A stretch of 64,000 bases of DNA from Methanothrix sp. (GCA_963682135.1 OY821645.1:736001-800000), one strand, 5' to 3'; counted from the stretch's first letter, positions 11,272-64,000 are shown. The notes: generated from the letters alone by a model not told the origin. Program-made: numbers and translations.

Positions 11272-12366
11272 ATGAAAAAAGTCGTCATTCTGGGTGCAGG
11301 GGCCACTTTGGGCGCGGCTTCCGTAGACTTGGTTGTGCGTCCGCCGCTTTTGCAAGACCTACATGCTATATTCGATGCTAGCTTCTTAAGTCTAAATCAA
11401 TCCGCTGATGGGCCTATTCTGAAGGATAGTCTTAAAAAATTATTAGAAATTACCAAAACAAAAGAAGATATCGAACGATTTTTTACGTTAATGCAAGTAA
11501 TTGAGGATATCCATCTGGATTATAGTCCCAAAGATCTACGTTTTGATTTATCAAAGATGGAGGAAATTTACAATGATTCTGTCTTCTCTGATCCTTTGAT
11601 CTGGTCTTATAATCTATCTAAGAATGATGTTAAAGATATAAGATTAATTTTAGGATACATCGTAAAAGATTCTAAGAGGCAAATTTTATGCTGTGCCAAT
11701 AATTTCTTTAGGCTATTTACGTATGCATTAAAGGAATACCTTAATCGTTCTATATCGGACAATTTTTGCATATACCACGAAAAATTGTTTAAAAATCTTG
11801 GAATTAAAGATACTGTTGCTACTTATAATTATGACGAAATATCTGATTTTACACTATTTCTCAGAGGAAAGCTTAGCGCCCAATCTTTCGATGAACTTGG
11901 ATTTAGCAGCATAACTTTCCCAAAAGAGCGACCTATTGTATCTGAAAGCGTCACTCTCTTGAAACTTCATGGGTCCTTCAATTGGCATACTAATTATTTA
12001 AAAGATGTGCATTATATTCTAGGTTCACAGAACGTGCCATTTCCCAACGTAATATTGCCCATTTATCACAAAGATCAAATTTACAAATCTAATAGGGTTT
12101 ATCGCTCGCACATGATAAAATATGGACAAAAAATTCGACACGCTGATAAAGTAATATTAGTTGGCAAAAATTTTAAAAACTCAGATCGCGAATTATATAA
12201 ATTTATTAATAAACATGCTCGAGGGAAAAAGAGGACATTGGACCTCATCGACCCAAAAATTGATGATGATTCCTTTATTGATTATCATTGTAGGCTTTTC
12301 AATGCCAAATTCGAAAACGGCTGGAAATCACTAAACGAGTTCTATAATTCATCAAGCTTTATTTAA
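11272..12366 (+). CDS. SIR2-like (SIR2_2) domain protein
   Basis: ILGAGA, TYNYD, LLKLHGS motifs; markedly AT-rich. Confidence 0.8.
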   Translation: MKKVVILGAGATLGAASVDLVVRPPLLQDLHAIFDASFLSLNQSADGPILKDSLKKLLEITKTKEDIERFFTLMQVIEDIHLDYSPKDLRFDLSKMEEIYNDSVFSDPLIWSYNLSKNDVKDIRLILGYIVKDSKRQILCCANNFFRLFTYALKEYLNRSISDNFCIYHEKLFKNLGIKDTVATYNYDEISDFTLFLRGKLSAQSFDELGFSSITFPKERPIVSESVTLLKLHGSFNWHTNYLKDVHYILGSQNVPFPNVILPIYHKDQIYKSNRVYRSHMIKYGQKIRHADKVILVGKNFKNSDRELYKFINKHARGKKRTLDLIDPKIDDDSFIDYHCRLFNAKFENGWKSLNEFYNSSSFI

Positions 12367-51845: not shown

Positions 51846-53138
51846 TCACTCTTCCGGCTCGTCTCGAAAGATGGTCTGCTCCCTTCCCGGCCCCACAGAT
51901 ACGGCGGAGATGCAGTTATCCAGCACATCAACATAGAGCAGATCCTCCAGCCGCTCAACATAAGCCCGGGCATTGTCCGGCAGATCCTCATACTCTTTGA
52001 CTTCAGTTATGTCCTCAGTCCAGCCTTCCATATCCTCATAAACAGGCTTGCATCTGGCGAAATCCAGTGTGCTCTCCGGGGGATAGCCTATCATCTCTCC
52101 ATCGAGTTCGTAAGCGACGCAAATTTTTAATGGATTAATGCCGGTCAGCACATCGAGCTTGGTCAGAGCCAGCTCGGTATAGCCGTTGAGATGGACGGAC
52201 TTGAGGCCCAAGACAGCGTCAAACCAGCCGCAGCGTCTGGCCCTGCCCGTGGTCGTGCCATATTCCCCGCCTTTTTCTCGCATCATCACACCCAGATCGT
52301 CTTTCAGCTCCGTAGGCATGGGACCTTCTCCGACGCGGGTGATGTAGGCCTTGATCACACCGACCACGTTGTCCACCATTACCGGCCCGACCCCCAGATT
52401 GGCGCAGGCGCTTCCTGCAGTAGTGAAGCTGGAGGTCACGAACTTCTGTGTGCCGTGAATAACATCCAGGAACGCACCCTGAGCGCCTTCGGCCAGAACG
52501 CTCTTCTCCTCGATGAGAGCGACGTTGATCTCACGCGAGACATCCGTGACCTTGTCCTTCAATCGCTTTCCTATCTCCAGATACTCATCGATGTATGGCG
52601 CATATCTTACTACCGTCGGGTCACCGCCCATATCGGCAATGGCTTTCTCCTTGGCCGGCCCGATCTCCTTTAGCTTGGCCTCCAAGAAATCCGGATCCGT
52701 AAGGTCGCCCATCTGCACTTCCTCGCGAGCAATCTTGTCCACATAGGCAAACCCAATGCCTCGGTTAGTGGTGCCGATCTTCTCAGTCCTGGCCTTCTCA
52801 CGCAGGCCATCGAGTTCAATGTGATAGGGCATGATGATGGTCGTCTTGGCATCGATGCCAATATCGACCTTGATGCCTTCTGATTCCAGCGCCTGGATCT
52901 CGCTCCACAGAACGCGAGGGTTGAGGACTACGCCCGGACCTATGAGCAGCCTTCTGCCAAAGATTGCGCCGCTTGGTACCAGATGCAGCTTGTACTTCTT
53001 TCCGCAGACAACCACGGTATGGCCGGCGTTGTCGCCGCCCTGGAAGCGAACCACAACATCGTAATTCTCGGCCAGCAGATCAATAACCTTGCCTTTGCCT
53101 TCATCACCAAACTGTGCACCGGTGAGTATCGTAAACAT
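51846..53138 (-). CDS. purA: adenylosuccinate synthetase
   Basis: QFGDEGKG, GGDNAGHT, IGTT.RGIG, EGAQG, TTGRARRCGW, TKLD. Confidence 0.97.
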   Translation of the reverse strand: MFTILTGAQFGDEGKGKVIDLLAENYDVVVRFQGGDNAGHTVVVCGKKYKLHLVPSGAIFGRRLLIGPGVVLNPRVLWSEIQALESEGIKVDIGIDAKTTIIMPYHIELDGLREKARTEKIGTTNRGIGFAYVDKIAREEVQMGDLTDPDFLEAKLKEIGPAKEKAIADMGGDPTVVRYAPYIDEYLEIGKRLKDKVTDVSREINVALIEEKSVLAEGAQGAFLDVIHGTQKFVTSSFTTAGSACANLGVGPVMVDNVVGVIKAYITRVGEGPMPTELKDDLGVMMREKGGEYGTTTGRARRCGWFDAVLGLKSVHLNGYTELALTKLDVLTGINPLKICVAYELDGEMIGYPPESTLDFARCKPVYEDMEGWTEDITEVKEYEDLPDNARAYVERLEDLLYVDVLDNCISAVSVGPGREQTIFRDEPEE

Positions 53139-53148
53139 AAAACTTAAT

Positions 53149-54042
53149 TTAACGACCACGTAGATAACAATTTTGATGCACATGGCTTGCGATCGCTGCC
53201 GTCACATCCACGCCCAGGGCCTCAAAGATGCCTTTTCCGGAAGGCGTTCCATTCACCTCAATGACGGAGAGGCCGCTTTTCGTCTCCAGGAGATCCACGC
53301 CGCAGTAGACGGCGCCTACTGCATTTGCCGCCTCTGCCGCCAATTGTTTAAGCTCCTTGCTGAGAGGGCAGAGGGCTGCCCGGCCGCCCCGGGCCAGGTT
53401 GCTGATCCACTGGCCGGGAGGAGCTACGCGATAGATAGCGCCCAGAACTCTTCCGTCCACCACGAAGGCGCGGATGTCGCGCGGAGTCTCGAGGGCGATG
53501 AACTCCTGCAGGTAGACCAGACCCTGGCTTTCCACGATGCTCTTCAGCCGGGCAAGGTCAGCCTCTACTTCATCCTCTAGAAGAATGATGTCTCGGCCTT
53601 TGTAGCCAAAGAGGGGCTTGGAGACTGCTTTCTTGAAATCCTGCAAGGCTTTTTCTGCCTCTTCCAGGTTGGTAGTAACCACAGTTCTGGGAGTGGCAAC
53701 TCCTGCTTCCTGCAAAGCCCGGGAGGTTGCGAACTTGTTGGCAGCTCTGGCGATGGCCTGGGGGGGATTGATGATAGCGATTCCTCTCTCTTGCAGGGCC
53801 TGCAAGACCTCAAAGCGGAAGGCGACATCGCTCGGCCCCCTCCGGCCCAGGTCCCGCACGACCAGGGCATCCAGATCCAGGAGATCGACTCCGGCGCAGC
53901 GGAAGGATTGGCCACCTGCGATGTTGACCAAGAGGTCTGAGAAGCTCAGGAAGAATGCGTCTATCCCTTTTGCCAAGAAGGAGGCGAGGAGAGCCTGGGC
54001 GGTCCAATCCTGGGGATCGGAGACAACGATTGCAGCGCGCAT
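53149..54042 (-). CDS. RimK-family ATP-grasp ligase (MptN/CofF-like alpha-L-glutamate ligase)
   Basis: ANKF, KPLFG.KG, QEFI, DIR.FV, W.SNLARGG, GVDL, EVNGTP. Confidence 0.88.
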   Translation of the reverse strand: MRAAIVVSDPQDWTAQALLASFLAKGIDAFFLSFSDLLVNIAGGQSFRCAGVDLLDLDALVVRDLGRRGPSDVAFRFEVLQALQERGIAIINPPQAIARAANKFATSRALQEAGVATPRTVVTTNLEEAEKALQDFKKAVSKPLFGYKGRDIILLEDEVEADLARLKSIVESQGLVYLQEFIALETPRDIRAFVVDGRVLGAIYRVAPPGQWISNLARGGRAALCPLSKELKQLAAEAANAVGAVYCGVDLLETKSGLSVIEVNGTPSGKGIFEALGVDVTAAIASHVHQNCYLRGR

Positions 54043-54080
54043 GAGCGAGAAGATTGGCGAGAGAGTATATCACGATTGCC

Positions 54081-54938
54081 TTAGGTTGATGCTATATAGG
54101 CAACCATCTCTCCCAAGGCAGCATCACAGCTTTTTGCCATTGAGGCGATATAGTAATCCAGCCAGGACGTAAGGTCGGCATCAGCTCGCCCCTCGTAGTA
54201 GTCGATATTTTCATGCAGATTGAGAGCCCGGTAGTAGCTATCAAGATCTTCTGCGTACTGCTCCTCTGGGGTGAGGAAGCCGGCCAGACTGTAGCCGTCC
54301 CTTTGCAGAATGAAGTCGGCACACAGGCAGGCGGCTACGCCGTTGCCATTGTTGAAAGGATGAAGGGTGGCAAGCTGATAGTGAACAAGACCGGCGATGA
54401 CGGGGACTGCCAGTTCGCTGCTTCTGGCATCTTCCGTCCAGATCTCCAGAGACGCGATCAACTCAGGCAGATCCTCTGGCCGGGGAGGAAGATAGACAGC
54501 TTCCCCGATGAGAGAGAATTTTGCAGCGATTTTCCTTTTGCGCAGAGGAGTGGGACGGGAGGATTTGCCGGTCATGGCCAATCTATGAAAGCGACTGATA
54601 AGGGTCTCGGTGAGCGGCAGACTCATCTTGGACCATTCCTCTGACTTCTGGAGAGCTTTGCAGTAATTTCGCACCATTGCAACATCATTTTCCAAGCCTT
54701 TGATCTCAACAGTCTCATCGGCAATCACAGTAGATGCCTGTTCAATAGTGAGAGATCCGCCTCCAATCAAGGAGGAAGCGCGGGAAGCCAGCACATGGGC
54801 GCGATCATGTAGCATTGCATATCCTTGGAGCGGTAGGATAACGGTCTCCACCAAGATGCGCGCCATCTCAATGCGTGTCAGGTTGTGGGAGATGGCGGGA
54901 GTTAGGGTGAAACGCGGGGACCAAATGGGGATTGTCAT
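54081..54938 (-). CDS. Fic-domain protein with non-canonical motif
   Basis: HPFNNGNGVAAC in place of HPFxDGNGRxxR; YYRAL...ADLTSWLDY. Confidence 0.85.
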   Translation of the reverse strand: MTIPIWSPRFTLTPAISHNLTRIEMARILVETVILPLQGYAMLHDRAHVLASRASSLIGGGSLTIEQASTVIADETVEIKGLENDVAMVRNYCKALQKSEEWSKMSLPLTETLISRFHRLAMTGKSSRPTPLRKRKIAAKFSLIGEAVYLPPRPEDLPELIASLEIWTEDARSSELAVPVIAGLVHYQLATLHPFNNGNGVAACLCADFILQRDGYSLAGFLTPEEQYAEDLDSYYRALNLHENIDYYEGRADADLTSWLDYYIASMAKSCDAALGEMVAYIAST

Positions 54939-55119
54939 TTCGAATGCTCCTTATGCCTTGATTTTTGAAAGACAAATGTTTTAAAATAGATAAAGATATC
55001 TTTTGATTGATTTACAGCAAAATTTAAGGCATTTGTAGATTGCGAAGACATCTAGCGATGCGAGCGAAACGAAAGAGAAGAGCGGTCCTGCCGCCCACAG
55101 TCCTTGAGAAGCCACTAGG

Positions 55120-55803
55120 CTACAGCTCATCTAGAGATCGTTTGAACCAAATCGATGTAAGGCTTAAAGAACTAAAAAGAATGATTGCATTTGCTACGAC
55201 ATCAATCAAAACAATGATTGTAGGCAATGGGTAGAGTGGATTGGTAAAAATGATGGATCCGGTGAGTCCCGAAAACAGAAATGACCGGCTTATCCATTTA
55301 GAAAGCCTGTCTCCGGAAAAGAGCCTCGATGCAGAGATAAGAGACAGACACATAAATAAATAGCCAATACCTTCCAATGCCCCCGGAAAGGAATTGGGAT
55401 ACGGTTGAGCAAAAATCCATAAAGTCAGTCCGTCGGTGGAGTGACGAACGAGATTGTGCACGACAACAACTGCTTGAATGTAATAAAGGGCACTAATAAT
55501 AATAGCATATGCAATGGCAAATACGACCGCAAGCAAGCTCCATATTTTTTTCTCCTCTGAAGTAGATGCATGAAGACATACAATCATCGTCAAAAAGCAA
55601 ATTGTCAGCAAAAAGCAAGGTATTATCCAGGCAATGAATGGCTCAACTCTAAAATTGTCCACATAGGCTTGCATACCATGCCAGGGTGCATATAGTATCG
55701 GCTGATATAGTCCAAAAGCAATGGAAAACCATAATTCTGTTACGGCAGCTAAAACAGCTGACCAGAATCCAAGTTGTTGCACTATTTTATTATTTATTAT
55801 CAT
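55120..55803 (-). CDS. multi-pass membrane protein
   Basis: About six hydrophobic segments. Confidence 0.75.
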   Translation of the reverse strand: MIINNKIVQQLGFWSAVLAAVTELWFSIAFGLYQPILYAPWHGMQAYVDNFRVEPFIAWIIPCFLLTICFLTMIVCLHASTSEEKKIWSLLAVVFAIAYAIIISALYYIQAVVVVHNLVRHSTDGLTLWIFAQPYPNSFPGALEGIGYLFMCLSLISASRLFSGDRLSKWISRSFLFSGLTGSIIFTNPLYPLPTIIVLIDVVANAIILFSSLSLTSIWFKRSLDEL

Positions 55804-56002
55804 GGTGTAGAATCTGCGTTTACTCGTTAATAGAGTTGGCGCCAACTGCCCGGCAATAGAATGCAACGGCAATCTCTCTCATGACAAAAAGGTTTGCGGT
55901 GATCTCTTGCTGGATCTAGGAGTGCACGATCTCTGACCCATATATTTAAGCCTCGAAATGAATATCTCAATACGCAGATCAAGAGAATCAGGAGATAGAT
56001 GC

Positions 56003-56521
56003 ATGAAAAAATCCTCAATCGATAGGCCAATGGAAGACGGCAGTACGATGCAGTTGGAATTTAGGAAGGCTGTCAAGGAGGATGTTCCCAAACTGATCAC
56101 ATTCCTCAAGGAGACTATTATGGAGGTCTATGGTCAGATCTTGTCCAGGGAGATTTTGCAGCCCTGGGTCGAAGGTGACAGGCTTGGTAGCGAAGTCAAC
56201 CAGCTATTGCCAAATATGATCGTTGCAGAAAAAACGGGCGAGATTTTGGCAGTTGCCGCCAATCTTGACGAGAAGGTAGCTTTTCTTTGGGTCCATCCAG
56301 ACCACCATCGCAAAGGCATAGGAAGCGTTCTGCTGGATATTGTTGAGACGGAGATAGAGAAATCTGGATACGAGATTGCAAAGCTGGAATGTTTCAGCGA
56401 TAACGACCAGGCTATGGGATTTTACCTGGCCAACGGCTGGAAGCTCCTTTGCGAAGAGATGGACAAAGAGGCATGCGCCTTGAAGATGGTTATGGAAAAG
56501 CCACTGACGAAGAAAAGCTAG
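56003..56521 (+). CDS. GNAT acetyltransferase
   Basis: V.PDHHRKGIGS, N.QAMGFY..NGW. Confidence 0.9.
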   Translation: MKKSSIDRPMEDGSTMQLEFRKAVKEDVPKLITFLKETIMEVYGQILSREILQPWVEGDRLGSEVNQLLPNMIVAEKTGEILAVAANLDEKVAFLWVHPDHHRKGIGSVLLDIVETEIEKSGYEIAKLECFSDNDQAMGFYLANGWKLLCEEMDKEACALKMVMEKPLTKKS

Positions 56522-56601
56522 GTAATACCTCGATTCGGAAAATGGCGGGCAGGCAAGACGAAGCGAAACTTTGAAGTCATGTCAAAATATATGCGAAGCA
56601 A

Positions 56602-57453
56602 ATGAACCACAATAGTTCGCCGACAATCATGAAAAAAGTGGCAATTGCGAATGTTTGGTTGTGGTTATCTGTGTTCGTCTCAATTCTGGTAACAATAACC
56701 AGCTTATCAGGGATATTTCTTAAGAGAACATACTCCCGAGAGACTGAAGCATGGGCAGTTCAAGCCATCGGCCAGGATTATGCCAATCTGATAGTTGTTA
56801 TACTCTTACTGGTTAGCACTTACTATGTCTCGAAAAATTCACTGAGGGCATATCTTATCTGGTTAGGTGCTTATATTTATATTATCTATGCATTCGCTAT
56901 TTATGCTTTCGCAGTTCACTTTAACTTTCTTTTTTTAATATATACTATAATTTTAGGAGTGTCGTTTTACACTCTGGTTGGGGGATTGAGGGCGGTCGAT
57001 ACAAAAAATCTGTCAGCATCTTTTCTCACAAATACAAAGTCAAAGATAGTGAGCGCGCTGCTGATGATTATTGGAATTTCGTTTGGCTTATTATGGCTGA
57101 GCGAAATAGTCCCCAGTCTTCTATCAAACGAAATACCTCCCAGCCTCGTTGAAACCGGATTGGGGGTAAATCCGGTCCATGTATTGGATCTGGCCTTTGT
57201 ATTGCCCGGCATGATTATTACATCAGCATTGCTCTGGAAGAGAAATATGATGGGATTTCTCCTGGCTGTACCATTTATGGTCTTTTCAGTGACTATGGGT
57301 GCGGGAATAATTATCATGTTCGCCATTTCTGCCATAAAGGGTATGCCAAGCTCCTTGCCCGCAGGGATGATTATTGGTTTAATAATGCTATTGAGTGTGT
57401 ATTTTTCATATCTATTTTTAAGAGAAGTGAATGAATATGATTATGACTATTGA
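56602..57453 (+). CDS. multi-pass membrane protein
   Basis: QAIGQD, NPVHVLDL; many TM helices. Confidence 0.8.
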   Translation: MNHNSSPTIMKKVAIANVWLWLSVFVSILVTITSLSGIFLKRTYSRETEAWAVQAIGQDYANLIVVILLLVSTYYVSKNSLRAYLIWLGAYIYIIYAFAIYAFAVHFNFLFLIYTIILGVSFYTLVGGLRAVDTKNLSASFLTNTKSKIVSALLMIIGISFGLLWLSEIVPSLLSNEIPPSLVETGLGVNPVHVLDLAFVLPGMIITSALLWKRNMMGFLLAVPFMVFSVTMGAGIIIMFAISAIKGMPSSLPAGMIIGLIMLLSVYFSYLFLREVNEYDYDY

Positions 57454-58276
57454 AAAGTATCGTCATCCAATCCTCTTCTACGGATTGTCCACAGCAATTC
57501 CGTGGGCGTTTTGGTTCGCGGCTGCGTACTTGAGCCACATCACACCCATGAACCAGTTTTTGGCGACAGCGGTAGGCGTTCTGGGCGTTGTTGGGCTGTT
57601 TGGTCCTACTTTGATAGCATTCTGGATGATCTGGCCGGACGCTGACTTAAGGGACGATCTCAAGAGACGGTTGATCGGTCTCAAAGGCGTCAGGCCGATC
57701 TATCTCTTTCTTACCTGTTTCCTCATGCTTGCCAGCATTCTTATGGCACAAGGGATTTCCTTATTGTTCGGGTACAGCGCGGATCAGTTCAGTCTTTCGG
57801 GCATGTCGTCGTTCTCTGCCGGAATCTTCCCAGGGTGGTTCCTGCTCTTTCTCGCACCCCTGGTAGAAGAATTGGCGTGGCACTCCTATGGCACCGACTG
57901 TCTGCGACAACGGATGAACCTGCTCAAGGCTTCCCTGCTGTTCGGTGTGTTCTGGGCTCTTTGGCATCTGCCGCTATCCTTCATCAAGGATTACTACCAC
58001 AGCAACGTGGCTGAGATAGGGCTGCTGTACAGCCTCAATTTCGCGTTCAGCCTTATTCCCTATGTAATTCTTATGAACTGGCTGTACTACAAGACGCATC
58101 GCAGCATACTTGTTGCTATTGTCTTTCACATCACAGCAGGGTACTTCAATGAAGCATTCGCCACGCATCCGGATAGTAAGGTGATCCAGACCGGACTCTT
58201 GCTGCTGCTGGCGATCGTGGTGATCATCAAAGAAAAGGACTTATTCTTGCAGCGAGACTACCGGGAGGAGAAATAG
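57431..58276 (+). CDS. CPBP (CAAX/Abi) intramembrane metalloprotease
   Basis: EELAW..Y, WALWHLP, H...N-like motif. Confidence 0.92.
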   Translation: MNMIMTIEKYRHPILFYGLSTAIPWAFWFAAAYLSHITPMNQFLATAVGVLGVVGLFGPTLIAFWMIWPDADLRDDLKRRLIGLKGVRPIYLFLTCFLMLASILMAQGISLLFGYSADQFSLSGMSSFSAGIFPGWFLLFLAPLVEELAWHSYGTDCLRQRMNLLKASLLFGVFWALWHLPLSFIKDYYHSNVAEIGLLYSLNFAFSLIPYVILMNWLYYKTHRSILVAIVFHITAGYFNEAFATHPDSKVIQTGLLLLLAIVVIIKEKDLFLQRDYREEK

Positions 58277-58287
58277 AATCTGCGCAA

Positions 58288-58477
58288 TTTGCCTAAACCC
58301 ATACCCCACACCATTCTCTGTCGGCCTTCCCCTGTCCGTCTCTCTCCGGCGGAGGAAAGCATGCCACGAAATGTTCCGCCCGTCCAAGCTCGTGCCGGCT
58401 ACAGTCTCCACCTTCACCGGCCTGGGAAAGCCCGCTTGCTCCAAAAGCCGCAGGAGGTCGTGCTCAAGGCACCCGAT
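58288..58477 (-). pseudogene. internal fragment resembling type I-G Csb2 (Cas5/6) C-terminal region
   Basis: QIGCLEHDLLRLLEQAGFPRP...WHAFLRRR...GYGFR; recognised from memory of the family, no start and no G-rich tail. Confidence 0.5.
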
Positions 58478-58504
58478 CTGCAGGCAGCGTCACATCCACA
58501 ATCT
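58478..58504 (-). repeat. csx3 remnant F (27-nt 3' tail)
   Basis: CTGCAGGCAGCGTCACATCCACAATCT, identical to the 3' end of intact csx3. Confidence 0.9.
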
Positions 58505-58515
58505 AATACCTAAGG

Positions 58516-58740
58516 CTAGTCCGCTGAGAACCACTCCTCTCTGCTTATGCCTCCATCTCGTAATATTTTTACCAATAGGTCCAATCCAATCTCTTCGCCA
58601 TGGTGAGGATTGGGGATAATGATAGTATCGATTCCACGGACCATATATTGATGCCTCTTGCCTTGAAATGGTCCCACTGCCCCCAGTCTGATAAGTCGCT
58701 TTATCAACTCTCGTCTCGTCACAGGAGAGAGCTTATGCAA
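58516..58740 (-). CDS. hicA: HicA-family toxin
   Basis: ELIKRL..LG..GP.QGKRHQYM...IPNPH...LL..IL...GISREEW. Confidence 0.88.
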   Translation of the reverse strand: MHKLSPVTRRELIKRLIRLGAVGPFQGKRHQYMVRGIDTIIIPNPHHGEEIGLDLLVKILRDGGISREEWFSAD

Positions 58741-58990
58741 CCTGTATCGGCTCCTTAACGGATGTGGAGATGGTCAGACCACCCATAGGCGGTACGCTTT
58801 GCCCCCATTGAAGTTTGGCCACAATCCATTCCTCAATGACTTCTATCAGCTCTTTCCTGCATTCTTCAAAGGTCTTGCCTGTAGCCCAGACGCCCACGAG
58901 GCCGGGCACGTGAGCATAATACGGATCAGGGTTATCGATTATCTCGTATTCGGCCCTTTCAAGAGCTGCCTGGATGTATTCTGCGAACAT
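58733..58990 (-). CDS. hicB: HicB-family antitoxin
   Basis: YYAHVPGL.GVWATGKT.EEC..EL.EVIEEW. Confidence 0.9.
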   Translation of the reverse strand: MFAEYIQAALERAEYEIIDNPDPYYAHVPGLVGVWATGKTFEECRKELIEVIEEWIVAKLQWGQSVPPMGGLTISTSVKEPIQVA

Positions 58991-59024
58991 GCAATTTGTT
59001 TATAGGCTGCACAAGGAGAAAAAG

Positions 59025-59250
59025 ATAGCGGACAGGGATGTTCACATCGACCACCTTGCCCCGGCGAAGGGCTGTGGCTGGCCACCACTCCCGTCCCCAG
59101 GCGCGGATCGGCTACCCAGGCCTCAGCCCGGCGAGCCGTGCAGCTGTTCATCGCCGTAGCGCCCGATGGGAGCGCGGCCCTCCACTATGACGAGCGAGCC
59201 GCGGGGTATCTCGGGCAGCGCCCAAGTGGCAGAGGTAATGGAAAGAGATA
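59025..59250 (-). pseudogene. csx3: csx3 remnant E
   Basis: LPEIPRGSLVIVEGRAPIGRYG / ADPRLGTGVVASHS / KVVDVNIP in shifting frames. Confidence 0.88.
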
Positions 59251-59273
59251 TTAGAATCAATTTGAGATGGTTT

Positions 59274-59489
59274 CTAAGCTAGACTTGCTGCAAGGCTTCG
59301 CTTCAGTGGAACCGGTATAGCCCTGCCCATATCTCTTGCAGCTTCTAGCCAAAGCTGCATGGCTATTTTGACCTCCCGAAGGGCTCTCTCTTCAGTCTCG
59401 CCGAAGGCTGAACAGCCGGGAAGCTCCGGAACAATAGCGATAAATCCCTCATCGTCCTCACTATAAAAGATCTCAATTGCGTACATCAA
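59274..59489 (-). CDS. hicB: HicB-family antitoxin (short)
   Basis: EDDEGFIA.VPELPGCSAFGET.E.AL. Confidence 0.92.
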   Translation of the reverse strand: MMYAIEIFYSEDDEGFIAIVPELPGCSAFGETEERALREVKIAMQLWLEAARDMGRAIPVPLKRSLAASLA

Positions 59490-59731
59490 TCCTCTTGGAG
59501 GTTATATCTCTCAATTACTTTAATAAACTGCCGGACCTGATAAGCCTTTGCCCATCCACCTTCGTTTTGGAAGTTCAATATCTCCTGTATTCCTTCTCGA
59601 AAGTAGACTCGATGGCTCCCAGTCCCTTTCCTGGTCTGAAAACCCAAAGCCTCAGCTATTTTGCACAATCTTGCGAAACGGATTTTCTTGGGATTGGCTT
59701 TAATCTCTTCAAGCAATTCTTGTCTGTTCAT
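59486..59731 (-). CDS. hicA: HicA-family toxin
   Basis: NPKKIRF, GF.....GSHRVY, QNEGG.AKAYQVRQ; likely start MNRQ at 59731. Confidence 0.9.
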   Translation of the reverse strand: MNRQELLEEIKANPKKIRFARLCKIAEALGFQTRKGTGSHRVYFREGIQEILNFQNEGGWAKAYQVRQFIKVIERYNLQED

Positions 59732-59763
59732 TTTTTGCTTCGCATCACATATGGGCACGCACT

Positions 59764-60023
59764 CTAACGATCAACAGGGATTGTAACATCCACTACCTGG
59801 CCCACCTGCCACTCCTGGCTGTGGGTTGCGACAACCACAGCTCCGAGGCGCGGATCGGCTCCCCTAGCCGCAGCGGACGAGGCGTGGAGGCGGTGCAAGG
59901 CCGCGGTGCGGGAGCGCGGCCCTCCACGATGACGAGCGAGCCGCGGTGGATGTCGGGCAGCGCCCAAGGGGCGGGGGTGATAGGGGAGAGGGCGGCGAAA
60001 GGAGTAGATATTGGGCTGTTCAC
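59764..60023 (-). pseudogene. csx3: csx3 remnant D
   Basis: SPITP..LPDIHRGSLVIVEGRAP [frameshift] ALHRLHAS...DPRLGAVVVATHSQEWQVGQVVDV. Confidence 0.92.
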
Positions 60024-60193
60024 CAGTTTTTATAAATTCTTTAATATTCCCCCGTCGGGCCATAGCTGCCTGGCTCAGCCTCAAATCATCCCTGGCTCAT
60101 CTACTTCTCTGCAGGCAGCGTCACATCCACAATCTGGCCCACCTGCCACTCCCGGCTGTGGGTTGCCACCACCACCGCTCCCAGGCGCGGATC
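59977..60193. repeat. about 217-bp direct repeat of 61202..61417 (csx3 tail + TATA-containing spacer + csx3 head)
   Basis: Near-identical by eye, including GATATTGGGCTGTTCACCAGTTTTTATAAAT and GGCTCATCTACTTCTCTGCAGGCAGCGTCACATCC. Confidence 0.92.
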
Positions 60194-60343
60194 GACTGCC
60201 CTAGCCGCAGCGGGCGAGCCGTGCTAGCCGGGTGCAGGGCCGCGGTGCGGGGGCGCGGCCCTCCACGATCACGAGCGAGCCGCGGGGGATCCCCGGGAGC
60301 GGGGGCAGGGCTGCGACCCGGCAAGGAGACGGCGATGGGAAAA
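60101..60343 (-). pseudogene. csx3: csx3 remnant C
   Basis: PIAV / LPPLPGIPRGSLVIVEGRAP / DPRLGAVVVATHSREWQVGQIVDVTLPAEK* in shifting frames. Confidence 0.92.
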
Positions 60344-60370
60344 TGATGAGAGAGGTCAATTGAGAGAACT

Positions 60371-60442
60371 TCACGCTGCATCCTTTATCTTCAGCTCGAC
60401 CTCTCTGGCCGCAATGGGCTTTGCAGGAAGCTTTCCTTCAGG
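60371..60442 (-). pseudogene. 3' remnant of a second YgiT-type zinc-finger gene
   Basis: PEGKLPAKPIAAREVELKIKDAA* aligns with AGTLLAKPLAAGEVDL of the adjacent intact gene. Confidence 0.75.
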
Positions 60443-60462
60443 GAAGTCACATCACCGTCTTC

Positions 60463-60729
60463 TCAAACACTTGCTTGGCAAGCCGGAGCATTCAGATCAA
60501 CCTCTCCGGCAGCGAGCGGCTTGGCCAGAAGTGTTCCTGCATGCAACGCCTTGCGAACCTCGTCGATCTTCCTAGCGGTCTCTAACGAATAGTAGGCTTC
60601 GTCACAATTCTCGCAAACGAAAGCCGGAATGTTTTTGATTACTACTACCATATTATTTATCTTGGCTGTGATCTCCGTTGTACCTTCGTGAAGCTTGCCG
60701 CTGCAATACTGACATTCATCTGGAATCAT
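60463..60729 (-). CDS. YgiT/MqsA-type zinc-finger protein (putative antitoxin)
   Basis: CQYC...IKNIPAFVCENCDEAYY. Confidence 0.9.
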   Translation of the reverse strand: MIPDECQYCSGKLHEGTTEITAKINNMVVVIKNIPAFVCENCDEAYYSLETARKIDEVRKALHAGTLLAKPLAAGEVDLNAPACQASV

Positions 60730-61058
60730 TTTCGTATCCTCACTCTCCCTTCAATCCATTTGTCCTCTGCTGGCCTGTAGACTGTCACAATCTTTATGTG
60801 GTCTCTGCATACGGCAACGGCCACATGGCAAAGTTGCTCACTCATGTCATGTCCAAGCATCAGGGCTTCAGGGCATGGTTTTCGTTCTGGATGTCCTTCT
60901 ATTACGTCTCCATTCATTAATAATTTTATCACATCATCGGGTGATATATCCCTCTCGAACATCCTCTCGCCTGCATGGTTAGAAAATACAATCTTGCCGG
61001 TAGCTGCAAAAAGCCTTATCCTTGCGCACAGATTTAATGACTCCCCGTCTCCACTCAT
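60726..61058 (-). CDS. DUF4258 family protein (putative RelE-like toxin)
   Basis: FSNHAGERMFERDI, G.VIE, HV.V, IVTVYRP..KW. Confidence 0.9.
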   Translation of the reverse strand: MSGDGESLNLCARIRLFAATGKIVFSNHAGERMFERDISPDDVIKLLMNGDVIEGHPERKPCPEALMLGHDMSEQLCHVAVAVCRDHIKIVTVYRPAEDKWIEGRVRIRK

Positions 61059-61125
61059 TATTTCGCTACCTCATGGCAGATACTACTATCTCAACTTTTC
61101 TCCCGAGCTGTAATGGTCAGATCGA

Positions 61126-61248
61126 TCATATATAGAAGGCGACAGTCACAGCGGGCGAGCCGCGGGGGATTTCAGGGAGCGGGGGCAGCGGCTCGACGGG
61201 AGTGATGGGGGAGAGGGCGGCGAAAGGAGGAGATATTGGGCTGTTCAC
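61126..61248 (-). pseudogene. csx3: csx3 remnant B (internally deleted, 3'-truncated)
   Basis: SPITPVEPLPPLPEIPRGS fused to PAVTVAFY*. Confidence 0.85.
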
Positions 61249-61324
61249 CAGTTTTTATAAATTTGTCAATATCCACCAGTCGGGCCATAGCTACCTGGCT
61301 AAGCTCAAATCACCCCCGGCTCAT

Positions 61325-61606
61325 CTACTTCTCTGCAGGCAGCGTCACATCCACAATCTGGCCCACCTGCCACTCCTGGCTGTGGGTTGCGACAACCACA
61401 GCTCCGAGGCGCGGATCATAGAAGGCGATGGCGGCAGCAGGCGAGGCGTGCAGGCGGTGCAGGGCCATGCCGTAGCGCCAGATGGGAGCCCGTCCCTCCA
61501 CGATGACGAGCGAGCCGCGGGGGATCTCGGGGAGAGAGGGCAGGGGCTCGGAGGGGGTGATGGGTGAGGGGACGGCGATGGAATAGAGGACGGGGGCGGC
61601 GATCAT
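61325..61606 (-). CDS. csx3: CRISPR-associated ring nuclease Csx3/Crn3
   Basis: VIVEGRAPIWRYG..LH.LH...AFYDPRLGAVVVATH; ATGA-coupled to upstream CARF nuclease. Confidence 0.92.
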   Translation of the reverse strand: MIAAPVLYSIAVPSPITPSEPLPSLPEIPRGSLVIVEGRAPIWRYGMALHRLHASPAAAIAFYDPRLGAVVVATHSQEWQVGQIVDVTLPAEK

Positions 61607-62856
61607 CTTGACACCCTCCCACCCAACATGAATATTTCTGATAATTTCTTCACGATCTTTTGGTCGTTATTCAATTTCATCTCTGCGAGTTCCTTAATAT
61701 GCATGCTTGGGATTATAGTGCAATTGTAGAGTTCCGCCCTATCTGAAATAGAATCTTTAATATCATTGCCTTTGAGTACGTTTGGAGAGGTTGTTGCAAG
61801 ATAGGATTTTATGTTGAGTGCACCTAATTGTCTTTTTACAGCTTCCACCTTATAGAGTGTTTCATTGCCTGAAGGATCATGTTTTTGGTCACCGGTCTTG
61901 CATTCAATAAAGCGCAGTGATTGGTTATGCATAAATGCAATGTCCCAGTCGTTCTTCACCTCTTTTTTTGACGCCTTAAAATCCAATTTTTTTCTTGGAT
62001 GAATGCCCAATCGAACGTCAGTAATTCCCAAATCAGGTGAATAATCTGTAAGAATTCCCCAGATAAATTCTTCCAACCAGCCTCCGGTTAAGAATTGCAC
62101 AGCATGACGCTTTAGAAGTCCATTAAGGAGTCCCTCATTATCATTAAGGCTAAATAAACTTGAAATCAGATCTCTAATAATTTCATCTTTTATTTCTAGG
62201 TTGACTAAAGTAATGCCCTTTTCTCTTGCCTTGGATCTGGCTTTCTCTAAGTTATCTCCATAGACCTCATTGAACCTATTATCCAAATCTTTCATTATCT
62301 TATGAGCAATATTAATATTTGCAGAGAGATGGACTGATAAATCAAGCAATTTTCTAGCACGCTCTTCACCTTCCTGGATAACATCCTCTTTCTTGAGATA
62401 GTCAAAGCCGTATCCTGCAAGGAATTCTTTAACTTTCAATTCATATTTCAACTCCATAAGTGAGCCGTCAGAGAAGTCAATAGCCTTTTTTTGAGCAATA
62501 ATCGGAACATAGAGTATTTTTGCATTTCTTCCTTTGAAGAATTCATATGCTGCTATAGACATTGGTTTGGTGCCGCCTGTAATATTAATAGTCCATTCTG
62601 CATCTGGATGTTTTGAAAGAAGCGTCCCAAGCAATTTCTTTGTAGCTTCGATGGAATTCTCTTCTTTAAGCGATTTAATTCTGCAAATCGGCTTCTTTGA
62701 ATGTCCCATTCTCAATGCCCTTATTAAGTTCGAAGCCCCTCTCTTGACTTTCATTCCTGGTGTTTCAAGCAAAATAAGAAGGTCAGGCTCAATTGTATGA
62801 ACCGTTAATAGGTTTGGAACATGCTGATCGCTTATTAGGCACACCATGACCTTCAT
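61603..62856 (-). CDS. CARF + PD-(D/E)XK nuclease effector (Can2/Card1, DUF1887)
   Basis: LISDQHVPN, NITGGTKPMS, GGWLEE, NDWD...FIECK. Confidence 0.9.
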   Translation of the reverse strand: MKVMVCLISDQHVPNLLTVHTIEPDLLILLETPGMKVKRGASNLIRALRMGHSKKPICRIKSLKEENSIEATKKLLGTLLSKHPDAEWTINITGGTKPMSIAAYEFFKGRNAKILYVPIIAQKKAIDFSDGSLMELKYELKVKEFLAGYGFDYLKKEDVIQEGEERARKLLDLSVHLSANINIAHKIMKDLDNRFNEVYGDNLEKARSKAREKGITLVNLEIKDEIIRDLISSLFSLNDNEGLLNGLLKRHAVQFLTGGWLEEFIWGILTDYSPDLGITDVRLGIHPRKKLDFKASKKEVKNDWDIAFMHNQSLRFIECKTGDQKHDPSGNETLYKVEAVKRQLGALNIKSYLATTSPNVLKGNDIKDSISDRAELYNCTIIPSMHIKELAEMKLNNDQKIVKKLSEIFMLGGRVSR

Positions 62857-64000
62857 CTTCTTCCTCTCCCGTCTCTTGGCTTGTGGCTAGTCTCTTTCTT
62901 TGCGCCAATGGCAGCAAAATTATATATGCCCTCCTTTTCCATGACTCCGTTTATCTCCAGCTTTGTCTTTTGGTTGATTTCAACAGATGGCGGTGTTCCG
63001 AGCACTACAAGACCACCAAATCCATCATCTGCCATGAAATAGGATGCATTTCTCTTCTCTTTCGGATCGGGAACTTTTGTGACTTCTATGGTATCGCCTT
63101 TCTTATGCCTCATCATTCGGATTGGCTGTGGCCGGTTCTGTGGATGTGGCTTATCCATGATTGAAGACTCAGCAGCCGAATCCTTGGCCTCTATTGACCT
63201 TCTGCCCGTTTGATCAGAACCTACAGGAATTAACCGTCCATAGCCTGCGTTTGTCTTGCCACCAATGCCCCATTCCTGTAGCGCATCAGAGAGCAGCTCG
63301 AAGACCTTCGTAGCCCAATCATCGCCAATTGGCCCTGAAACGTCGCAAGATACTGCAACCTGGAAGGTTCCCACGATTGATAGAAAAGTTACTGGATTTG
63401 GATCATCAAAGTCCGTCGGCGCAATATTGCCCGTCTCATCAGAGTAGTAATCGCCATGATGCGGTGTCATCACATCAAGCTGAAGCGATCCTTCAAGGCT
63501 ATCGGGAGTGATCCAGGCATCATGGAAGATGATATGCCCTGAGTCCTCGGTCGTTCCGAAGATGGCCTTATGGTATTCACCGCTCAGCTTGAATTTCTCA
63601 TCAGCCGCCCCCCATGCCTGATCACAATAGTGAGCTGCAAGGCCCTTCAGAGCTGAGCCTGGAATCAATGGGGTTCCATAGGTATGGTTCAGGGTAAGCC
63701 CGGTTTCAAGGACATTTTCTCCGCCAAGGCCGATGATCATTCGACCATCTGTGCGATAGAATCCTTTGGACTTCAAATTCCTGAGCGCGTACTCTTGCCT
63801 TTGATAAGCCGCTTCGTAGGTCTCTCTGGACTGAACAAGCGATTGGCGCATCGCCTCAAACAGCTCTCTGCGGGATTGAGGATGGTTTTTCTTGTCTTTT
63901 ACAGCTACGCGGAGAAACCTGTCTCTCAAAAGTCCCGCATTATCGCCATTTTTGTCGAAATCCCACCATGCTGAAATAGCTGATCTGCAAGCTTCGGCCA
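62853..64000 (-). CDS. cmr6: type III-B CRISPR RAMP Cmr6 with C-terminal extension (5' end at window edge)
   Basis: NAGLL.DRF, IGLG..NVLETG, P.IPGSALKG, DVMTPH, DPNPV.FL, GIGGKTNAGYG; frame open to 64000. Confidence 0.95.
   Translation of the reverse strand, partial: AEACRSAISAWWDFDKNGDNAGLLRDRFLRVAVKDKKNHPQSRRELFEAMRQSLVQSRETYEAAYQRQEYALRNLKSKGFYRTDGRMIIGLGGENVLETGLTLNHTYGTPLIPGSALKGLAAHYCDQAWGAADEKFKLSGEYHKAIFGTTEDSGHIIFHDAWITPDSLEGSLQLDVMTPHHGDYYSDETGNIAPTDFDDPNPVTFLSIVGTFQVAVSCDVSGPIGDDWATKVFELLSDALQEWGIGGKTNAGYGRLIPVGSDQTGRRSIEAKDSAAESSIMDKPHPQNRPQPIRMMRHKKGDTIEVTKVPDPKEKRNASYFMADDGFGGLVVLGTPPSVEINQKTKLEINGVMEKEGIYNFAAIGAKKETSHKPRDGRGRR

Follow-up and report, generated by a model that had tools for sequence, protein, structure and literature searches.

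The cassette array described here lies in a 64,000-nucleotide (nt) stretch of DNA from Methanothrix sp. (GCA_963682135.1 OY821645.1:736001-800000), called the window in what follows, with positions counted from its first letter. The host genome encodes McrA and is that of a methanogen. On the minus strand, a type III-B operon (cmr1-6) of a CRISPR-Cas system is followed by card1 and by csx3, a ring-nuclease gene, and on the 3' side of this operon stands a toxin-antitoxin cassette array punctuated by csx3 copies: after the intact copy A come the co-oriented csx3-derived segments B to F, with three gene pairs between them. A first-pass annotation of this DNA had read the order as A, spacer, B, DUF4258 and YgiT pair, C, spacer, D, hicA-hicB, E, hicB-hicA and F, and it was right in every element; all six csx3 copies and all three pairs do lie on the minus strand, and the pairs are flanked by csx3 DNA. 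From the cas operon outwards, the features are the following.

Beyond the window end (locus L066), cmr1-cmr5: matches to Cmr5, a Cmr4-like RAMP, Cmr3, Cas10/Cmr2 and a Cmr1-like RAMP
62853..63929 (-), cmr6, last core gene of the type III-B module (NCBIfam TIGR01898 Cmr6, 143.8 bits; Pfam RAMPs)
61603..62856 (-), card1, gene of a Card1-like CARF nuclease (Pfam CARF_Card1 1.8e-24, Card1_endonuc 5.6e-28)
61325..61606 (-), csx3 A, intact ring-nuclease gene, 93 amino acids (aa) (Pfam Cas_csx3 3.5e-22)
61237..61324 (-), spacer 1, 88 nt, directly 3' of csx3 A
61153..61236 (-), csx3 remnant B (nhmmer profile positions 10-92)
60726..61058 (-), DUF4258 gene, presumed toxin of cassette 1 (Pfam DUF4258 1.4e-23)
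60463..60729 (-), YgiT-type zinc-finger gene, presumed antitoxin of cassette 1 (NCBIfam TIGR03831, 44.9 bits against a cut-off of 20.2)
60101..60352 (-), csx3 remnant C (nhmmer profile positions 4-275)
60015..60100 (-), spacer 2, 86 nt, a duplicate of spacer 1, 3' of remnant C
59765..60014 (-), csx3 remnant D (nhmmer profile positions 7-274)
59486..59758 (-), hicA of cassette 2 (Pfam HicA_toxin 5.4e-05)
59274..59489 (-), hicB of cassette 2 (Pfam HicB_lk_antitox 3.1e-08)
59033..59239 (-), csx3 remnant E, 3' end deleted (nhmmer profile positions 39-264)
58733..58990 (-), hicB/UPF0150 of cassette 3 (Pfam UPF0150 6.4e-29)
58516..58740 (-), hicA of cassette 3 (Pfam HicA_toxin 3.5e-06)
58476..58504 (-), csx3 remnant F, 28-29 nt of the csx3 3' end (nhmmer profile positions 241-269)
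57431..58276 (+), convergent gene of an Rce1/CPBP-like membrane protease, the array boundary (Pfam Rce1-like 1e-11)

The start of csx3 A is overlapped by the card1 stop codon. Copy A holds the only csx3 frame of the array that is intact and above the family cut-offs, and it exceeds the curated values of both Pfam Cas_csx3 (78.5 bits against 21) and the NCBIfam equivalog TIGR02579 Crn3/Csx3 (63.6 against 55.4). Cleavage of cyclic tetra-adenylate is the known activity of the Csx3/Crn3 family and is predicted for copy A from its membership. The other segments, located with a DNA profile (nhmmer) built from 33 near-full-length csx3 copies, are truncated or frameshifted, and by blastn their identity to A is 82.5% over 223 nt for C, 78.3% over 253 nt for D, 73.9% over 161 nt for E and 83.3% over 72 nt for B. 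Remnant B has kept the 5' part and lost the 3' part, and has an alternative N-terminus starting from GTG (open reading frame 61126-61248). Remnant C is nearly full length, with open reading frames in two frames; D is frameshifted as C is, the two have a 10-nt deletion in common, and the C-terminal frame of D still matches Pfam Cas_csx3 (8.5e-07). Remnant F is 100% identical over 28 nt to the 3' ends of A and C (A positions 248-275), and in the alignment its cassette-to-csx3 junction matches that of four other genomes, an internal deletion coming after it in the window. The contrast drawn by the first-pass annotation between G+C-rich repeats and more AT-rich cassettes was also found, with a G+C content of 0.67-0.71 in csx3 A-E and 0.45-0.48 in cassettes and spacers, against 0.377 in card1 and 0.50 in the whole window.

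Each of the three pairs consists of two small, adjacent, overlapping genes, whose toxin and antitoxin roles are presumed from their family matches. The YgiT-type gene, which has no Pfam match, overlaps the DUF4258 stop, and the hicA of cassette 2, at 23.6 bits, is under the Pfam HicA_toxin cut-off of 27, a caveat on its name. In run X21, two contigs match the window from both sides up to 59607-59609, inside this same hicA, and then continue into unrelated sequence, as an insertion in the toxin gene, in that culture or in a co-resident strain, would give. At gathering thresholds no known RNA family was found in the window, and six related loci gave a tRNA only.

The same layout recurs in many relatives, and the check proposed by the first-pass annotation, whether csx3 copies flank variable cassettes in other genomes, thus gave a positive answer. 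A Csx3 protein search gave matches in 38 of the 59 genomes of the window's genus, and 34 of the 40 loci taken from them have at least two csx3-derived segments, always co-oriented and mostly 0.2-1.4 kb apart. Both loci of the sister genus g11 also have at least two co-oriented segments (five and three), and a scan of metagenome contigs added 80 further loci, 39 with at least two co-oriented segments and none with segments on mixed strands; the longest metagenome array has six csx3 copies and five cassettes. Many of these loci come from short-read metagenome-assembled genomes (MAGs) or metagenome contigs. In a phylum sample of 401 genomes csx3 was present in 21, and clusters of csx3 fragments were confined to the window's family (its own genus and g11), while each of the 11 csx3-bearing genomes outside the family gave a single match. 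Since cmr6, card1 and a single csx3 are followed directly by a CRISPR array in the sister genera g10 and g12, the csx3 array is a derived state of the DNA that lies between csx3 and the CRISPR array; the single-copy csx3 of sister genera is equally G+C-rich (0.69-0.71), so that this composition is older than the arrays. The scan of viral contigs with Csx3 gave no relative, and the three records matched in a plasmid collection include none from archaea.

The position at the end of a type III-B operon, which the first-pass annotation took to be part of the architecture, holds for the window and not for every locus, because some arrays adjoin CRISPR arrays or sit between them. L149/L152 (164-6078) has two CRISPR arrays in one orientation with a csx3-cassette array between them; in L080 and L084, past position 12090, csx3 remnants and a DUF4258/YgiT cassette recur on the far side of a CRISPR array; and in L035, L044, L060 and L110 solitary repeat-like sequences stand after the last csx3 copy.

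The cargo was surveyed with 24 reference cargo proteins against 123 loci, of which 42 come from genomes and 80 from metagenomes, the window being the remaining one. About 12 kinds were found, nearly all predicted by family match to be type II toxin-antitoxin pairs: four or more types of HicAB, PemK/MazF paired with a 62-aa partner, MNT (nucleotidyltransferase) with HEPN, HEPN with a 124-aa partner, MNT with HepT, PIN, DUF4258 with YgiT, and a ribbon-helix-helix (RHH) protein. Occasional cargo other than pairs consists of Card1-like CARF genes (381 aa, or a 216-aa membrane form). The cargo matches have the orientation of csx3 in 239 cases and the opposite one in 4; csx3 DNA separates 52 of the 55 consecutive cassette pairs and stands on both sides of 81 of the 123 cassettes, most of the others being at contig or array ends. 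As many as 74 distinct layouts are present among the 123 loci.

Homologues of the window DUF4258 protein, at 35-46% aa identity, occur in 10 of the 40 other loci of the genus, most of them directly 3' of a csx3 copy. HicB proteins are a large family, with more than 300 matches in 54 of the 59 genus genomes; in the lineage of the window HicB2 (at least 94% aa identity) csx3 DNA is found within 1.5 kb in 7 of 7 loci, the window's own included, whereas paralogues at 61-86% aa identity have it nearby in 0 of 23. The window's genome carries further HicB paralogues at other sites, of 71% identity at most, and these lack csx3 DNA. The occurrence of the same toxin-antitoxin genes without csx3 flanks, which the first-pass annotation had named as contrary evidence, was thus not what this lineage showed. 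Truncated cassettes and chimeric reading frames in the arrays show deletion at work. Two stretches, L039 6213-6416 (oriented coordinates) and the gap 4305-4504 of L059, appear to be chimeric deletion leftovers: in one, a HicA-like start is fused to a MazE-like antitoxin, and in the other a MazE-like start is cut after about 15 codons and joined to csx3.

The order of the cassettes varies. Both orders were seen for 14 of the 36 co-occurring pairs of cassette types, and seven different types stand directly after the card1-csx3 head. In the set restricted to genomes, most orders are compatible and there are 4 direct conflicts, some resting on fragments. A single master order, which early inspection by eye had made plausible, was ruled out by the conflicting orders, those 14 pairs among them. 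Among cassettes of 97% identity or more, compared across 350 nt or more, 6 of 13 comparisons give a different next neighbour and 4 of 16 a different previous one (10 of 29 together). The hicA-hicB cassette of the window is 98.2% identical at the nucleotide level to a cassette of genome G073 (L052), which there directly follows card1-csx3, while the 20-kb control between these two genomes gives 86-91%, apart from one 400-nt piece at 96%. Cassette 3 is 92-93.5% identical at the nucleotide level to the same cassette in five other genomes, and the HicB2A2 cassette is 92-98% identical in six species, against a background of 77-89% between the window's genome and the other five.

The identity of such cassettes ends within csx3. 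In a sliding-window comparison of three near-identical cassette pairs, identity is 95-100% across the cassette and 60-90% in the flanking csx3. Of 31 pairs compared at a cassette identity of 96% or more, several involving one and the same strain, the informative ones lose identity 0-200 nt into csx3, some with mosaic patches; such variable tract ends are what crossovers in diverged homology would give. Within an array csx3 copies are on average more alike (0.806, 56 pairs) than between arrays (0.755, 3398 pairs), 21 of 89 copies have their nearest relative in their own array, and some flanking pairs are 92-96% identical (L046, L029, L039), which points to gene conversion or recent duplication. 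The csx3 frame is intact in 21 of 41 head copies and in 7 of 61 later ones, on a lenient criterion under which even the frameshifted D counts as intact.

A dedicated machinery was sought in several ways. The families recurring as neighbours in 122 loci are Card1 (41 loci), Cmr6 (38), other Cmr genes, a Cas4-Cas1 fusion (22), a SAVED-domain protein (12), a family A DNA polymerase (10) and an S_4TM effector (4), and no recombinase or transposase was present among the neighbour families found in at least 4 of these loci. In a scan of the window's genome for the tyrosine recombinase family Phage_integrase, the closest match lies about 115 kb from the array. Single-strand DNA folds of A, C and D, on both strands, showed no attC-like hairpin (z from -1.1 to +0.8 against shuffled controls). 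At 99 distinct 3' and 94 distinct 5' junctions, the information just outside the csx3 start and stop codons is about 0-0.4 bit, giving no junction motif; conservation ends at these codons, and csx3 is therefore the only element common to all junctions. Matches resembling a CRISPR repeat (at most 9 mismatches of about 36) were absent from window positions 53000-64000, as from the shuffled controls of all loci, and no Cas1 gene was found in the window's own stretch. On the absence of attC sites and of a visible integrase these results agree with the first-pass annotation, which had called the array integron-like.

From these comparisons we consider it rather probable that homologous recombination and gene conversion between csx3 copies duplicate, delete, swap and reorder the cassettes. 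The exchange would take place between the 275-bp G+C-rich csx3 copies, within an array, between arrays and with DNA from relatives. An array would grow by tandem duplication of a csx3-cassette unit, after which one cassette would be replaced by a double crossover in both flanking csx3 copies, with DNA from a relative as donor. As portable homology, csx3 would make a dedicated integrase unnecessary. The nearly exclusive toxin-antitoxin cargo could be explained because only modules that punish their own loss would persist between direct repeats, which are otherwise open to deletion, and such pairs may also shield the adjacent CRISPR-Cas genes from deletion. The first-pass annotation had likewise made csx3 a recombination anchor, and the shuffled order, the near-identical cassettes in different contexts and the identity tracts ending in csx3 agree with it on this point. 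It had also supposed serial addition at one end, which is unsupported, since no decay gradient expected of head addition was found over 10 arrays (rho 0.15, p 0.49); of 9 arrays, 4 have copy 1 nearer than the last copy to the head csx3.

Several observations weigh against exchange through csx3. Most cassette types (PemK, HEPN138 and many DUF4258/YgiT) are 76-90% identical between species, against 77-89% in the 20-kb control; their divergence is close to the genome background, so that much of the pattern may be old and vertically inherited. In the pair L090 and L136 the cassette borders themselves are where identity drops, from 100% to under 80%, more as would be seen at a fixed site. The csx3 halves adjoining the same cassette type are barely more alike than others (0.77 against 0.74, and 0.764 against 0.759), an effect too small for their linkage to the neighbouring cassette type to be used as evidence; a simple carrying along of flanks predicts a stronger link, so later homogenisation has to be invoked, and homogenisation within the array may explain the weak linkage, which is a weak point of the recombination reading. 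Mis-joins at repeats in short-read MAG and metagenome contigs could inflate the apparent shuffling. An excision joint or circle was looked for in reads, and none was found in isolate runs: the short skips of X17 and X19 (20-nt sides) probably stem from paralogous HicAB genes elsewhere in the genome and were rejected as excision. The metagenome run X1 gave one joint, of a kind also present in genome G011, with the hicB-hicA leader immediately after a csx3 stop, and two weaker ones; these too were set aside as evidence of excision, one side being only 26 nt at a 90% likeness threshold and a depth of about 4.

Other explanations have to be weighed against recombination at csx3. That the repeats are an assembly artefact is extremely improbable. 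No single contig or long read extends across the whole stretch, and the breaks of the Logan contigs of runs X17 and X19 fall inside repeats only; these contigs, from two studies, one of which may itself be the source of the genome, nevertheless cover 57800-62200 with 0 differences. The 60-mers shared between repeats are covered at about double the depth of the flanks (about 100 against about 50 in X17, about 449-459 against about 220-230 in X19); the doubling is confined to shared words and agrees with the number of copies assembled. What speaks most strongly against an artefact is the recurrence of the layout in many independent genomes and in metagenomes. Alternatively, the array may be old and built once by tandem duplication, its present differences being due to differential loss and decay with no ongoing exchange. 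The background-like divergence of most cassette types, the largely compatible orders of the genome-only set and the traces of deletion would all suit such a history, which is unlikely nonetheless, as it does not readily account for cassette pairs found in both orders, for near-identical cassettes with different neighbours, for cassettes 98-100% identical between csx3 flanks at 60-90%, or for a HicB2A2 cassette above the background in six species.

A site-specific system, integron-like or Cas1-like, would have an unrecognised recombinase or the nearby Cas4-Cas1 integrase insert cassettes at csx3 and duplicate csx3 in doing so, as spacer integration does with a CRISPR repeat. To it belong the sharp borders of L090 and L136, the Cas4-Cas1 fusion genes of 22 loci, the cassette-flanking csx3 copies that can be 92-96% identical and the cassettes of L161, L162 and L180, of the same families, which adjoin solitary or degenerate CRISPR repeats. 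We regard it as improbable, given that neither junction has a conserved motif outside csx3, that identity tracts end at variable depths, that csx3 DNA forms no hairpin and that the window's stretch has neither a Cas1 gene nor, in the 11 kb scanned, a CRISPR-like repeat. No Cas1 reaction, moreover, is known to duplicate 275 bp. There is an equally small chance that the csx3 fragments are retained for a use of their own, either as promoter or regulatory modules for each cassette or as silent donors that diversify the expressed csx3 by gene conversion. A box resembling the B recognition element (BRE) and TATA box stands about 52-57 nt after many csx3 copies, just before the next gene, the copies within an array exchange sequence, and the head copy is intact far more often than the others; many cassettes, however, directly follow a csx3 stop codon without the box, and the remnants are truncated at all sorts of positions.

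Beyond the recombination reading itself, it is possible, if rather doubtful, that the csx3 arrays are a working gene-capture platform free of integrase, in which the csx3 frame, partly with a promoter-bearing tail, would be the portable homology block by which cassettes for toxin-antitoxin and other defence systems move from strain to strain and species to species, accumulate beside type III CRISPR-Cas and are kept by addiction. Such a platform would be the archaeal counterpart of the integron, driven by recombination. In a bolder version, staggered cuts at both ends of csx3 would insert the cassettes and duplicate csx3, like the CRISPR repeat at spacer integration.

The conservation of csx3 itself differs from that of its surroundings. 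Between loci Csx3 has 80-90% aa identity, while the adjacent Card1 has 36-40% in most loci and Cmr6 59-71% in six loci, and at the overlap of card1 and csx3 the G+C content steps from 0.377 to 0.674. At the level of these identities csx3 is a conserved island between the divergent card1 and the variable cassettes, and the divergence of card1 together with the G+C jump suggests that the effector gene in the card1 slot is also swapped, with csx3 as one boundary. In the window's genome a lone csx3-like fragment of 65 nt (G000:C1:568364-568429, profile positions 35-99, E 2.5e-6) lies at a distance from the array, and the 3 kb to either side contain no homologue of the cargo. A crn3 gene is also found at 6603-6887 of L072 (NZ_CP133039.1), an 18-kb linear phage-like record filed as Synergistota bacterium; its product has 64% aa identity to residues 30-93 of the window Csx3, and as it stands with repressor and helix-turn-helix genes, near integrase, holin and polymerase genes, it is a candidate ring nuclease of a mobile element.

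The DNA that follows csx3 is in part shared as well. Spacers 1 and 2 are 88% identical; spacer 1 has the BRE/TATA-like box TTTATAAAAA at about 61262-61252, and spacer 2 has the same TATA-like box. A subset of units shares a tail of about 60-90 nt downstream of csx3, with GGCCCGACnGGnGAATATT, a gap of about 5-7 nt and TTTATAAAA, the box being about 52-57 nt after the csx3 stop, and from its sequence the box is inferred to be a promoter. In 15 loci (L035, L036, L027, L026, L089 and 10 more) a conserved G+C-rich element of about 100 nt stands about 20-90 nt after the csx3 stop. It has no Rfam match, its consensus fold has 19 pairs with one compensatory change, and one copy occurs elsewhere in the window's genome (G000:C1:2862568-2862649); the stretch past remnant F, 58288-58475, gave no match to it.

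Rows of toxin-antitoxin genes also occur with repeats other than csx3. Cassettes from the families of the csx3 arrays (YgiT, HicB1-like, HicB4A4 and a HicB2A2 relative at 84-85%) are found beside cas2 and a CRISPR array in L161 (G079:C10:2765-6019), L162 and L180, where solitary or degenerate CRISPR repeats take the place of csx3 copies between them; among loci without csx3, CRISPR-like repeats were seen in 3 of 23. Tandem HicB-HicA pairs without csx3 DNA are split by G+C-rich direct repeats (196 nt, 96%) in L170 (1-1338), and those of L182 share 27-nt motifs. Judging from these repeats, repeat-punctuated toxin-antitoxin rows may be more general in the window's genus. On the other side of the operon, about 3 kb from cmr1, the plus strand of L066 8749-10458 (G000:C1:808749-810458) carries a gene of 569 aa whose C-terminal half has an adenosine-deaminase domain and whose N-terminal half is unassigned.

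The literature search found csx3-punctuated arrays undescribed, in agreement with the first-pass annotation, supplementary files being outside the search; loci of this kind may be present in the accessory-gene tables of PMC6546367. Among described architectures the nearest is that of the orphan toxin/immunity arrays behind cdiA and rhs genes. There the orphan modules keep a fragment of the upstream gene, their displacement and redeployment by homologous recombination with the upstream copy is proposed, and integrase and transposase genes are noted among them (PMC4927057). Common to both are tandem pairs of a toxin and its protector in the orientation of the upstream gene, each with a homologous fragment. 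In the contact-dependent inhibition (CDI)/Rhs arrays, however, the repeated gene encodes a large toxin-delivery protein, whereas csx3 encodes a 93-aa CRISPR ring nuclease; their toxin is in frame with the delivery-protein fragment, whereas the toxins of the window have their own starts and the frame of remnant B stops before cassette 1; the pairs of the window are predicted intracellular type II systems in an archaeal host; and no integrase or transposase recurs in the csx3 loci.

Integrons offer another parallel, among them the sedentary chromosomal ones with many toxin-antitoxin cassettes and those reported from archaea (10.1101/2022.08.03.502626, 10.1101/2022.02.06.479319). They have in common with the csx3 arrays small, ordered, co-oriented cassettes split by a repeated element, variable between relatives and with toxin-antitoxin cargo. 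The csx3 arrays differ in having no nearby IntI-type integrase, attC hairpin or core site, in a repeat that is a whole 275-bp gene, and in a cargo made almost only of toxin-antitoxin pairs. Toxin-antitoxin modules have also been reported beside cas genes, both in the guarding of CRISPR-Cas by CreTA (PMC9458426) and as modules bordering cas (PMC6546367); the 2018 survey of type III accessory genes reports no such pairs among its conserved clusters (PMC6546367). With CreTA the window shares addiction modules that adjoin cas genes, and stabilisation of the cas locus is a plausible role. The window array is not a CreTA module, since CreTA is made of RNA toxins and antitoxin RNAs resembling CRISPR repeats, while the window has protein type II pairs in a csx3-punctuated array and no CRISPR-like repeat in the 11 kb scanned; such repeats do flank the related cassettes of L161, L162 and L180.

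If exchange between csx3 copies is indeed what shapes these loci, an ordinary gene can be the repeat of a cassette array that homologous recombination alone builds and reshuffles. A simple explanation would then be at hand for arrays that fill with addictive modules, in a concrete system that can be tested with a marker placed between two csx3 copies. For the annotation of these genomes, strings of csx3 pseudogenes are structural parts of an array and not noise, and in environmentally important methanogens toxin-antitoxin modules are physically tied to the ring-nuclease end of type III CRISPR-Cas loci.

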